Positions 1 to 3,000 of a stretch of 27,909 bases of DNA are shown here, piece by piece. Positions within the stretch are counted from its first letter, which is position 1. The number at the start of each line of letters is the position of its first letter. Source of the stretch: a virus (taxonomy: Duplodnaviria > Heunggongvirae > Uroviricota > Caudoviricetes); IMG/VR virus record IMGVR_UViG_2541047965_000002, one strand, 5' to 3'. The position numbers are program-made.

Positions 1-3000
1 ACTGCTCGTTAGCCCATGAATAACAATCAGAAAGTACCATAACAGACCCGAAGAAAATGAAATATAAGAGAAGATCAACGGGTGAGGAAAAAGTTCAAAA
101 AATCGCTGCCGGGGAGGAAGGAAACTACCGGATGGAAAGAGTCCCCCTAAAGCAGACTGACAGACATCACAAATCCCCGGGTGGGGATTTGTGTATAAGA
201 GACAGCTTACTAGGGGGGCTTTTTTATCATCATCTAAAAATGCCATGTGAGTTGCAGAAATAGATTCAATATCTGTAAGCTTTGCAGAGCAATTGTTTCC
301 GAACTGGGATTCTAAATATTTTATTACTGCGTTTCTTACTGCATTTGCATGAGGGCGTAATTCTTTGTGTTTTTTAAAAAACTTTTTTACCTCATTTGGA
401 AGTTTGCGGGTTGCTCCAGCTGATGCGATCCCCTTATCACACCCAAGAGCTGCGATGAAATATGCAGCAGCAGACTGTCCCGTAGTTTTGTTGATGAAGC
501 TTAAGTAGCTTAATTCTGTTTTTTGAACATCATCAGCTTGGTGATATTGATAGTATAAGTGAAAATTTATTTTTGCAGCTTGGTTAATATTATTTAACTC
601 CAGATGTATCATTTCTTCTGGCTCGAGTTTTTCGCTAATTGTTACTCCATTCGTTTTTTTTATCATAGCTACAAGAAAATATCTGATGCCTGCTGAAATA
701 TAATCAGTAAAAACAATGTATCCTCCAGAAGACCAAGATTGAGATTTGGCTGAATGATACATTTGTTCCATTATTTTCTTTGTTAAGTTAATAAAGTCAA
801 TAGATTGAGAAGTTGCTGTTTGGTGATACTGATCAAATAATACCGGGATTGGACCTTGTTCTTTTGGGGCGCTTTTGAATACACCGTAATGTGCTGAGTT
901 GCCTTTAGAGCCATAAAGAGCAACGACCCCTTCAACAAGGGAAATTACAACAGCGTTTGTTTTATCAAGTTCAGAATCACGCAGGTTGTATCGTTTCGAG
1001 TGGTCAAAATCTTTATCTTTCTCTTTTAATAGCTCGTGAACAATAACGTGGTTGATTTTTAGGTTTGGCATTTTTTTCGTTTTTGTTGGGGACAATATAG
1101 GTTGTATGAGGATAATAAAAAGTTAACGCGTACGCAAAAACTATTGTATCGTGTTAAGAGTGGTTACTTCGCCACACAGCTTAAACCCGCCGTCGAGCGG
1201 GTTTTGTCGTTTCTGGGGCTGGGGATTCGTTGGTCCTGGCCTATTCCGCAGTTGTCCATCGGTTCGGCTTCTTTGACGTTTCCGCTTCTGATTTGCGGTA
1301 CATGATGTTCCCTCAATTTGCACCTGCTGTATCAGCGAGGTGAGAGATAACTACAAATGCCTCATAACCCAAATACCTGGCTGGAGTTGGTCCAGAGCTG
1401 GTGGCGTGGAGACACACCGCTGGGCGCAGTGATTATGTCGATTGTTATGGCTGGTTTACGTATTGCCTATTTTGGCGGTGGTGGCGGCTGGAAGCGAAAA
1501 ACACTCGAAATTCTACTCTGTGGCGCTCTGACGCTGACTTTTGCATCCGCTCTTGAGTATGTCGGATGGCCTAAATCACTATCTGTTGCCATTGGTGGTG
1601 GGGTGGGGCTGATCGGTGTTGATGCTATTCGTGGGGCTGCAATGAGAGTAATCGGTAACAAGTTTGGTGGCTCTAAGGAGTAATTTATGCAGGTACTAAA
1701 TTCCCAGCGTAAAGCTTTCCTGGATATGGTGGCATGGTCAGAGGGAACGGATAACGGACGGCAGAAAACCAGAAATCATGGTTATGACGTCATTGTTGGC
1801 GGAGAGCTATTTACCAATTACTCCGATCATCCTCGCAAACTTGTCACACTAAACCCGAAACTCAAATCAACAGCCGCAGGCCGTTATCAACTTCTTTCAC
1901 GCTGGTGGGATGCTTACTGTAAACAGCTTGGTTTGAAAGACTTCTCCCCCAAAAGCCAGGACGCTGTGGCACTGCAACAGATTAAAGAGCGTGGCGCTTT
2001 GACGATGATTGATCGCGGCGATATTCGTCAGGCAATCGACCGTTGCAGCAATATATGGGCTTCTTTGCCGGGCGCTGGTTACGGTCAGTATGAACATAAA
2101 ATTGGTGACCTGATTGCCAGGTTTAAAGAGGCTGGTGGAGTGATAAATGAAGTTGAGCTATAAGCTGGTTATCGCTGCATTCTTCGTTACTGTCATTGGT
2201 TCTTTTATCTGTTCAGTGAATCATTACCACAATAAAGCCATTGAATACAAAAAGCAGCGTGATGAGAATGCTATGGCATTAGATTCGGCTATGGCGACCA
2301 TCGCTGATATGCAGAAGCGTCAACGTGATGTAGCAGAACTCGATGCCAGATATACAAAGGAGTTAGCTAATGCGAAAATCACTATCAGTAATCTGCGTAG
2401 GGATATTGATGCTGGCCGTAAGCGGCTGCGGGTCAAAGCAAACTGTTCAGCAAACGGAGCGACCGGCACCGGTGGCATGGGCGATGCTTCCTCCCCCAGA
2501 CTTACTGACTCCGCTGAACGGGATTATTTCGCCCTTAGAGAGCGAATCGTCACAGTGACGAAGCAAGTCAGCTATCTTCAGAGCTATATCAAGGGACAGT
2601 GCCAAAAATGATATAGTGGACTATAGCCTTCATTAAAGGATAGGATGCTATATTATGTCCTGAAGGAGATGTCAGAATGGGAAATATAGATCCATTATCA
2701 TTAGTGACTACAATGGTTAGTCTTAATTTGAATGGCGTGCAAGTTTCACAGGGAACAGGGTTCTTTTATCAATCTATTGAAGAACAACTTTTATTCTTGG
2801 TAACAAATTATCATGTTGTCACCGGACATAGCCCACAATCAAAAGAATCGCCTTTAGGTGACTCAATTTCCTTCAAAGTTAGGGTGAAATCAGGTGGCAG
2901 CAAAACCATTGAGATTCCTCTTTTTAAAAACGGCAAACCAACTTGGCTTCAGCATGCAAGTGAGAAAAATGCTGATATAGCAGTAATTCCATTGTTTGGA

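Follow-up and report, generated by a model that had tools for sequence, protein, structure and literature searches.

A YejK-like gene interrupted by ISEc13 in a lambdoid prophage: probable loss of the sensor from a predicted two-gene anti-phage cassette

Why would a prophage carry a gene for a nucleoid-associated protein right beside its lysis genes? The question is raised by one end of a 27,909-nucleotide stretch of DNA (the window, from here on) belonging to a Caudoviricetes virus, IMG/VR record IMGVR_UViG_2541047965_000002. A first-pass annotation of this DNA saw a horizontally acquired DNA-binding protein, carried by the phage in its own right and possibly used for silencing or exclusion. 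Our answer is a different one. The intact form of the gene is most likely one half of a two-gene abortive-infection system, and the copy in the window a null sensor allele made by the insertion sequence ISEc13. We give this prediction, which draws on sequence comparison and on analogy with characterized systems, a probability of roughly 70%.

A distant relative of YejK

Translation of the minus strand from the ATG at 1071 down to base 1 yields 357 codons without a stop, and it is because this frame is open to the window edge that the ORF was missing from the mechanical ORF list. The native part of the gene occupies 206..1071 on the minus strand (codons 1-288 plus 2 nt), as judged from its Pfam match and its identity to intact alleles; the other 69 codons are read-through into an insertion sequence, across which the frame runs on by chance. 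The window ORF matches the Pfam NA37 family (PF04245) with E=1.8e-36 and 126.6 bits, where the gathering cutoff is 24.6, and an intact allele reaches 158.5 bits. GC content is 0.34-0.37 across 300-1050 vs 0.52-0.58 in the late operon, and the gene diverges from the holin gene at 1357. So far the first-pass annotation had read the DNA well. It had described a minus-strand ORF of more than 350 codons running open to the edge, AT-rich, transcribed away from the lysis genes and akin to YejK, and had proposed the HMM comparison with NA37 that now gives a significant match. The three peptide blocks it quoted (INHVIVHELL and two more) are all present in the translation, within stretches that HMMER aligns to YejK 9be2. 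The prophage is of the SfII/SfV-like, serotype-converting kind, and the AT-rich gene is cargo that it acquired horizontally.

How close is the kinship with YejK? The first-pass annotation did not mention its remoteness. Full-length K-12 YejK (b2186; PDB 9be2) matches the family profile with an hhalign probability of 99.6% (E=6e-24); the two proteins have the same two-domain NA37 fold, can be aligned over their full length, and share the hydrophobic residues of the C-terminal dimerization arm. Identity, on the other hand, is only about 20-22%. Against the YejK equivalog model NF001557, which has a cutoff of 341 bits, the window copy scores 113.4 bits and the intact allele 132.7, and on these scores we rejected identity with YejK itself in favor of a paralogous subfamily. 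The genes also live differently: YejK is a core, stand-alone chromosomal gene, whereas the AT-rich gene in the window belongs to the accessory genome, is carried by a prophage and has a membrane protein as its partner. An AF2 model of the intact 376-aa protein (pLDDT 84.5) has a YejK-like fold, and its only significant PDB match is YejK 9be2 (E=1.2e-15). A similarity of the model to KwaB of the Kiwa system, with a probability of 0.1-0.16, was judged not significant.

A slot for exchangeable cargo

The DNA between the NA37 gene and the lysis genes tells us what kind of place this is. At 1072..1122, on the minus strand, lies a cargo-specific upstream region (the 5' UTR, possibly with a promoter) that differs between cassettes; from about 1121 onward the sequence is common to them. 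Upstream of the ATG at 1071 a consensus scan for promoters gave nothing on the minus strand, and there is no clear Shine-Dalgarno sequence in 1072..1122. By eye, a weak TTTTTA-16-TATATT match can be picked out in the same stretch, which we do not claim as a promoter. Next, at 1123..1213, the plus strand has a late-promoter-like block, TTAACG-16 nt-TGTATC, and after it, at 1183-1204, a hairpin terminator recognized by a terminator match. The block is nearly invariant in four prophages with different cargo or lysis genes. From the architecture of lambdoid phages we infer that it is pR'/tR', which would place the cassette between gene Q and pR'. Beyond it is a lambda-family holin gene (1357..1683, plus strand), the first gene of the late/lysis operon, known from annotations of identical DNA.

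This position, with the Q antiterminator gene on one side and the late promoter on the other, is not peculiar to one phage. Klebsiella phage P7641 and two further E. coli alleles have the cassette in the same slot and orientation, and other phages have other candidate defense cassettes there. One of these is PDC-M53A/B (SfII_50/SfII_49) of the closely related Shigella phage SfII, likewise a two-gene candidate defense cassette, whose slot and orientation match exactly: it lies between Q and the conserved pR'-like block and diverges from the holin gene. Its proteins, in contrast, are unrelated to those of our cassette and contain no NA37 domain.

The partner beyond the window

The window stops short of the other half of the story. 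Scaffold KE702523.1 (GCA_000461615.1) shares 8163 nt with the window without a single difference and continues past the insertion sequence, where it holds an 85-aa 3' remnant, an intact 406-aa partner gene and gene Q. The partner gene, lying outside the window, was absent from the first-pass annotation. Bases 206..1071 match an intact allele, the 376-aa WP_032248478.1 of 6 complete E. coli genomes, with 99.9-100% identity. The cassette is rare: a DNA-level relative is present in 40 of the 5426 complete E. coli genomes, the window's own allele in only those 6. The intact cassette of this allele is made up of WP_032248478.1 and WP_001072604.1. In intact alleles the partner ORF starts 19 bp after the NA37 gene, in the same operon, and in every one examined a protein of the same membrane-protein family comes directly next, within 19 bp or overlapping. 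The two families occur on the same contigs in 19 cases, and their divergences correlate (r=0.95, 19 pairs), a correlation that might reflect shared phylogeny alone.

The N-terminal domain of the partner (residues 1-285) is soluble and acidic, with a net charge of -11 and a pI of 5.1; three hydrophobic helices lie toward the C-terminus, at about 287-305, 307-329 and 385-405. It has no match in Pfam, and its AF2 model (pLDDT 86.9) has no significant match in the PDB by Foldseek. CorA-like and pore-forming-toxin-like folds were considered and rejected, with E>1 in the same search. No PADLOC v2 model matches either cassette protein. WP_016159279.1, the partner of a second allele, bears the label 'Predicted novel defense gene' and a log-odds of 13 in the literature. 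We infer that the partner acts as an effector.

Two systems with a similar plan

What might such a pair do? The nearest precedent is DS-1, a system with a YejK domain that was shown by experiment to protect E. coli against phage (PMC13092281). It is DefensePredictor system D390, composed of WP_000355468.1 (the NA37 protein) and WP_000150292.1, with NCBIfam models NF053868 and NF053869. These models find the intact pair with 101 bits (E=6.7e-29) and 103 bits (E=1.6e-29), respectively, and the second allele with 99 and 101 bits; neither protein of the intact pair reaches the DS-1 equivalog cutoffs of 330 and 315 bits. In BLASTP against the published DS-1 proteins the NA37 protein shows only 25% identity (E=9e-13) and the partner 22% (E=4e-8), over about 220-235 residues. 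By these comparisons the cassette proteins are remote homologs of both DS-1 proteins. The plan of the two systems is the same: a two-gene unit with the NA37 gene first and the membrane-protein gene second, of similar sizes (391/404 aa in DS-1, 376/406 aa in the intact cassette), whose second protein has C-terminal transmembrane helices, the first of them starting with a KAL-IP motif. They differ in that DS-1A has an N-terminal zinc-ribbon-like extension, which is absent from the cassette's NA37 protein, and in that the window copy is truncated. That the subfamily lies far under the DS-1 equivalog cutoffs and has no PADLOC v2 match was counted against a defense role in our estimate.

The second precedent is PANGU type II, a nucleoid-bound sensor and a membrane effector that work through abortive infection and are both required for protection. 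When T4 infects, its nucleoid-associated protein, Pag2A, comes off the nucleoid; for the acidic domain of Pag2B it has a KD of 19 nM (bioRxiv 10.64898/2026.04.06.716658). The same study reports that neither PANGU component is toxic alone, that a KRK mutant of Pag1A is toxic, and that PANGU systems were found by their linkage to defense islands. Our cassette, also from E. coli, likewise encodes, in a tight operon, first a YejK-like nucleoid-associated protein and then a protein whose N-terminal domain is acidic and whose C-terminal domain is transmembrane. The partner is acidic over residues 1-285 and has its three hydrophobic segments after residue 286, as a PANGU type II effector should, with DNA mimicry as a putative property. 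The genes of PANGU type II lie less than 40 bp apart; so do those of the intact alleles, with their 19-bp spacer or overlap. In the window's strain, by contrast, the 1550-bp insertion sequence breaks into the sensor gene and keeps the two genes of the operon apart. The cassette also sits in a prophage late-gene slot instead of a defense island. Its likeness to PANGU type II is one of architecture only.

Homology with DS-1 and the architecture of PANGU type II together suggest how the intact pair may work, with 206..1071 as part of the presumed sensor gene of a DS-1/PANGU type II-like cassette. The NA37 dimer would form a clamp on chromosomal DNA. Degradation of the host chromosome by a superinfecting lytic phage would set the protein free, and it could then bind the acidic, DNA-mimicking domain of its membrane partner. 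The partner would in turn damage the membrane, and the infected cell would be stopped.

Could the pair serve the prophage in some other way, through membrane superinfection exclusion, lysis timing or a toxin-antitoxin arrangement, instead of sensing chromosome degradation? The cassette does adjoin the lysis genes, its partner is a membrane protein without a known-fold match, and the function of the subfamily is so far only predicted. Against this stand the homology of both components to DS-1, the acidic N-terminal domain that the partner has in common with Pag2B, the interchange of the cassette with other candidate defense cassettes (PDC-M53 in SfII), and the fact that PANGU components are non-toxic singly, unlike a toxin-antitoxin pair. 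We regard such alternative services as unlikely.

The stand-alone protein of the first-pass annotation, coating or silencing prophage, host or incoming phage DNA next to an unrelated neighbor, has a little to commend it. DNA binding by NA37 proteins does not depend on a particular sequence (PMC11229321), and the gene is AT-rich, as are many targets of xenogeneic silencing. Other phages carry such genes: F116-like Pseudomonas phages (F116, H66, LKA5, phiC725A) encode NA37 (NdpA/YejK-like) proteins, although these are distant (21-23% identity), belong to another phage group and lie at another genome position. But the two families of our cassette co-occur and co-diverge, the membrane-protein gene follows directly in every intact allele examined, both proteins have their homologs in DS-1, neither PANGU type II gene works alone (bioRxiv 10.64898/2026.04.06.716658), and YejK has no preference for AT-rich DNA (PMC11229321). 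We find a solitary role improbable. The two functions that had been offered for it fared differently: exclusion comes near the best current reading, while silencing has found no support.

How the window copy was broken

If the intact pair is an abortive-infection system, what has become of it here? Bases 1..205, on the minus strand, are the right end (IS50 outside-end-like) of ISEc13: they match the final 205 nt of an annotated 1550-bp copy, which adjoins mog in E2348/69, with 100% identity. ISEc13 is an IS50-like element of the IS4 family. Its ends, CTGTCTCTTGATCAGATCT and CTGTCTCTTATACACAAA, form IS50-like inverted repeats, and the terminal repeat CTGTCTCTTATACACAAA runs, in minus-strand reading, from 205 down to 188. 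In the full element a 457-aa transposase ORF starts 166 nt from the outside-end-like end; the first 13 codons of this gene lie at 1..40 on the minus strand (ATG at 40..38), in the orientation of the NA37 gene, and the peptide MVLSDCYSWANEQ is present in KE702523.1. Identity to the intact alleles begins exactly at base 206. The 8 bp at 206..213, CTTACTAG, are one copy of a target-site duplication, identified by setting KE702523.1 against the intact allele; the second copy lies beyond the insertion sequence, outside the window. Both ISEc13 sites examined (the NA37 gene and mog) have an 8-bp duplication. The element entered after codon 288, that is, into codon 289, at a site that fits its sequence preference.

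An assembly artifact was rejected as the cause of the junction, with both junctions and the target duplication present in one scaffold, KE702523.1, which contains an N-gap; further evidence comes from a second assembly, GCA_016853545.1, in which a contig ends at the same codon 288. The two assemblies, GCA_000461615.1 and GCA_016853545.1, are possibly clonally related. Exact-match searches of viral, metagenome and genome collections returned no copy of the right IS/gene junction. The first-pass annotation had suspected that the C-terminal part of the ORF was abnormal near an IS50-like end, and here it was on the mark: the junction is at 205/206. It had also asked where similarity to YejK stops relative to 206, and the native gene does stop there, where hhalign makes 265 the last YejK residue before the cut and 266 the first one after it. 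The true stop, which it had hoped to find by extending the contig leftward, can be located with the E2348/69 copy of ISEc13 spliced in: it falls 90 nt past the window edge, giving a fusion ORF of 387 aa (288 native, 99 IS-coded).

The damage is considerable, and the first-pass annotation had not listed the window copy as truncated and probably non-functional. The window keeps the front 77% of the gene, with 88 C-terminal residues cut off (the stretch that carries the chief dimerization arm and the C-domain's contacts to DNA), and covers positions 1-237 of the 325-position NA37 profile where the intact allele covers 1-320. The loss is equivalent to YejK residues 266-335 and includes the equivalents of R276, R280 and K284 (hhalign). 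On the AF2 model, half of helix 281-295 is gone, as is the whole C-terminal beta-hairpin/helix arm. What remains is the N-domain and a basic helix region, 195-260 (net charge +8); a complete two-domain NA37 protein would also have the C-terminal dimerization arm, which closes the DNA clamp. Without residues 291-335, YejK occurs mainly as a monomer and binds practically no DNA (PMC11229321). Because the lost region exceeds this segment, the window copy is probably inactive. In addition, the 1.55-kb element parts the effector gene from the front of its operon. Judged by analogy with YejK, the window copy of the sensor gene is most likely a dead one.

Might the fusion nevertheless be active in a rewired locus, binding DNA as a monomer, or binding the effector and keeping the membrane protein under altered control? 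Nothing of the N-domain or of the basic 195-260 region is lost, the frame continues through 99 IS-coded codons, the transposase and effector genes are co-oriented so that read-through transcription is conceivable, and at least two assemblies have the same insertion. We think an active fusion very unlikely. YejK dimerizes stably through the arm that is lost here, and deletion of this arm alone abolished its DNA binding (PMC11229321); toxicity, as seen with the Pag1A KRK mutant, would be expected of a sensor that binds the effector and not DNA; the site fits the preference of ISEc13, so selection for function need not be invoked; and the two assemblies may be clonal relatives. Least probable of all is a fusion that, clampless, still engages an effector transcribed by IS read-through, so that the cassette would have an altered trigger or be constitutively active at a low level, or, more broadly, a prophage-restricted branch that senses some signal other than chromosome degradation.

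What the locus means

The sensing of phages through nucleoid proteins, as in DS-1 and PANGU, was described only in 2025-2026. With the intact pair as a predicted abortive-infection system and the window copy as its probable null allele, the locus would represent a distinct branch of this class of sensors, its function predicted from sequence relationships and analogy. The branch travels as exchangeable cargo in the slot between Q and the late promoter of lambdoid prophages in E. coli and Klebsiella. For annotation, the consequence is that the 357-codon ORF should be recorded as a pseudogene interrupted by ISEc13 and not as an intact nucleoid-associated protein. For the biology, nature may have provided a sensor knockout beside an intact effector gene, and with it a control for the role of the C-terminal clamp arm in sensing.

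An NA37-family gene interrupted by ISEc13

At the left edge of the window, a minus-strand ORF (1071..1) translates into 357 sense codons and is still open when the sequence ends. It was absent from the ORF list because its reading frame runs off the window edge. The first-pass annotation had picked it out from the sequence alone as an AT-rich, YejK/NA37-like gene. Residues 10-260 match Pfam NA37 (PF04245, E=1.8e-36), and the three peptide blocks named in that annotation are all there, within stretches matched by HMMER with E. coli YejK (PDB 9be2, E=8e-13). An NA37-family profile of 45 sequences aligns with full-length K-12 YejK at an hhalign probability of 99.6%. 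Window 300-1050 has a GC of 0.34-0.37, the structural genes 0.52-0.58. The ORF, its NA37/YejK matches and its low GC thus confirm the original observation.

The suspicion that the C-terminal part was abnormal, at an IS50-like end, proved right. Among 5426 complete E. coli genomes searched by megablast, identity to intact alleles (six genomes, 99.9-100%) begins exactly at base 206; outward of it, bases 1-205 hit ISEc13, an IS4-family element, in hundreds of copies. A full copy adjoining mog in E2348/69 is 1550 bp long, with an 8-bp duplication, a 457-aa transposase and ends that are IS50 inside-end-like (CTGTCTCTTGATCAGATCT) and outside-end-like (CTGTCTCTTATACACAAA). Its last 205 nt are 100% identical to window 1-205, and comparison with it puts the transposase ATG at window position 40 (minus strand). 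ISEc13 entered after 866 nt of the NA37 gene, in codon 289, and where the intact protein reads ...KKAPLVRELMQ..., the window reads ...KKAPLVSCLLYT.... Splicing in the full element gives a fusion ORF of 387 aa (288 native and 99 IS-coded), with its stop 90 nt past the window edge.

The insertion is real. Through the neighbouring endolysin protein we reached NCBI scaffold KE702523.1 (GCA_000461615.1), identical to the window over 8163 nt. An N-gap there covers the IS interior, and the window starts 2 nt past it. On the far side of the IS the 8-bp duplication (CTTACTAG) recurs, and after it come an 85-aa ORF that is the NA37 3' remnant, an intact 406-aa gene and the gene for the Q antiterminator. 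Another assembly, GCA_016853545.1, has a contig that likewise stops at codon 288. This break, together with the two IS junctions and the duplication in KE702523.1, establishes the insertion. The disrupted gene occurs in 0 of the 5426 complete E. coli genomes. The called length of the large terminase gene varies between assemblies: 577 aa in the window and loci L002-L004, and 498 aa in L005/L006 (GCA_027217685.1, GCA_016853545.1), where 234 nt separate it from the small-subunit gene before it.

Why there? At 6/6 independent ISEc13 sites (window 188-225; loci L009 and L015-L018) a run of five or six Gs begins 7-9 nt past the outside-end-like end, often with a T-run after it, as in a terminator; at the insertion spot the NA37 gene reads CTAGGGGGGCTTTTTT. 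From these sites ISEc13 appears to have a target preference, which would suffice to explain its location in the NA37 gene without invoking selection. The common G-run/T-run target also explains why megablast matches to other ISEc13 copies reach window 219-225.

A two-gene cassette related to defence systems

In intact alleles (e.g. TUM1880, locus L001), 19 bp separate the 376-aa NA37 gene from the 406-aa partner gene downstream of it, and both lie on the strand opposite to the Q and holin genes. GC is 35% in the NA37 gene, 32% in the partner and 46-48% in the neighbours. The partner's N-terminal 285 residues are acidic (net charge -11, pI 5.1), and three hydrophobic segments follow at about 287-305, 307-329 and 385-405. 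Its confident AF2 model (pLDDT 86.9) combines an alpha/beta domain with a long helix and a helical membrane region, and Foldseek against the PDB returned no significant match to it. Homologues of both proteins are spread over Enterobacterales, and in the 19 cases where they share a contig the divergence of one from the query tracks that of the other (r=0.95). DNA-level relatives of the NA37 gene occur in only 40 of the 5426 complete E. coli genomes. The window's allele is present in six complete genomes, and in one of them, FT130 (L010 3558-4255), another IS has independently entered the locus: IS1A lies between cassette and holin gene, with the NA37 start codon ~190 bp downstream of it. The NA37 CDS annotated in FT130 has 365 aa, 11 fewer than the intact 376.

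Two defence systems bear on the cassette. DS-1 is a pair of genes (WP_000355468.1 and WP_000150292.1) validated experimentally in the DefensePredictor study, which also counts a YejK domain among those it newly links to defence (PMC13092281). BLASTP against the published DS-1 sequences gives 25% identity (E=9e-13) for the NA37 protein and 22% (E=4e-8) for the partner. The nearest NCBIfam models to the intact NA37 protein are YejK (133 bits, cutoff 341) and DS1_1_antiphage (101 bits, cutoff 330); for the partner it is DS1_2_antiphage (103 bits, E=1.6e-29, cutoff 315). By these scores, below the equivalog cutoffs, the cassette is a DS-1 homologue and not an equivalog. With PANGU type II, described in a 2026 preprint, the cassette shares its architecture: a YejK-like protein, Pag2A, is paired with Pag2B, which has an acidic, DNA-mimicking N-terminal domain and a C-terminal transmembrane domain (bioRxiv 10.64898/2026.04.06.716658). 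Both genes are needed for its abortive-infection protection; T4 infection takes Pag2A off the nucleoid, and Pag2A binding to the acidic Pag2B domain has a KD of 19 nM (bioRxiv 10.64898/2026.04.06.716658).

PADLOC v2 is without a model for the cassette proteins; the sister-allele partner WP_016159279.1 is listed as 'Predicted novel defense gene'. KwaB is the DNA-binding protein of Kiwa and works with a membrane partner, KwaA. The Foldseek match of the intact NA37 model (L001 5739-6866) to KwaB is weak and non-significant (E 0.1-0.8, probability 0.1-0.16), a resemblance that may be chance. The first-pass annotation had proposed DNA-binding cargo, possibly for silencing or exclusion: exclusion comes near the best current reading, and silencing is unsupported. 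The partner gene, the DS-1 homology, the PANGU-like architecture and the precise extent of truncation lay beyond its sight.

A cargo slot in an SfII-like prophage

The window is an SfII/SfIV/SfV-like prophage, with lysis genes, a P27-type terminase, contractile-tail genes, gtrA, gtrB and a type-specific gtr gene, and the start of int. Homology to SfII begins at ~1117, and window 1123-1213 (+) is a nearly invariant block among four prophages differing in cargo, one also in lysis genes. It holds a promoter-like TTAACG-16 nt-TGTATC and then a hairpin terminator (AAACCCGCCGTCGAGCGGGTTT, 1183-1204) with a T-run up to 1213. It looks like a late promoter and terminator (pR'/tR'), a late-control unit for Q protein; read so, it would place the cassette between Q and pR'.

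Other E. coli lambdoid prophages have two more NA37/partner alleles in this slot, oriented alike, and so has Klebsiella phage P7641 an intact pair, the sole close relative among 50,697 phage records. Shigella phage SfII carries there, in the same orientation, a different two-gene candidate defence pair: its 'hypothetical' genes SfII_49/SfII_50 (L012 2082-3696) match PADLOC PDC-M53A/B (E=2e-32 and 3e-54). This match suggests that two-gene defence cassettes are exchanged at the Q/holin slot.

Between the lysis genes and the HNH/terminase genes, GC falls to 0.37-0.39 in a second AT-rich insert (window 2677-3579, +). Its product, a trypsin-like S1 peptidase of 300 aa, hits PDC-S45, a single-gene defence family that PADLOC lists as a candidate (E=7e-45), and has weak similarity to the protease domains of LmuA and RT-protease. 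At the O-antigen-modifying end of this serotype-converting prophage, an acyltransferase gene (22890-23938, -) is seemingly split into abutting ORFs of 78 aa (the Acyl_transf_3 start) and 270 aa, and may be frameshifted. It adjoins the DUF6056 type-specific gtr gene (24655-25896), gtrB (25893-26810) and gtrA (26807-27169); the integrase gene starts at 27571.

Probable effect of the insertion

Modelled by AF2, the intact NA37 protein (pLDDT 84.5) has one significant PDB match, YejK (E=1.2e-15). Beyond residue 288 lie half of helix 281-295 and the entire C-terminal beta-hairpin/helix region, all lost with the cut, which by hhalign falls between YejK residues 265 and 266. YejK contacts DNA through R276, R280 and K284, and its residues 291-335 form a stable dimer interface, loss of which alone leaves mostly monomers and essentially no DNA binding (PMC11229321). 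The window's product would accordingly be predicted to be unable to form a DNA clamp. The operon, moreover, is split by 1.55 kb of IS, and because PANGU type II needs both its genes, the locus is most likely inactive. The cassette is probably a naturally disrupted newcomer to a recently described kind of defence system, and the ISEc13-disrupted locus is useful as a natural knockout of the putative sensor.
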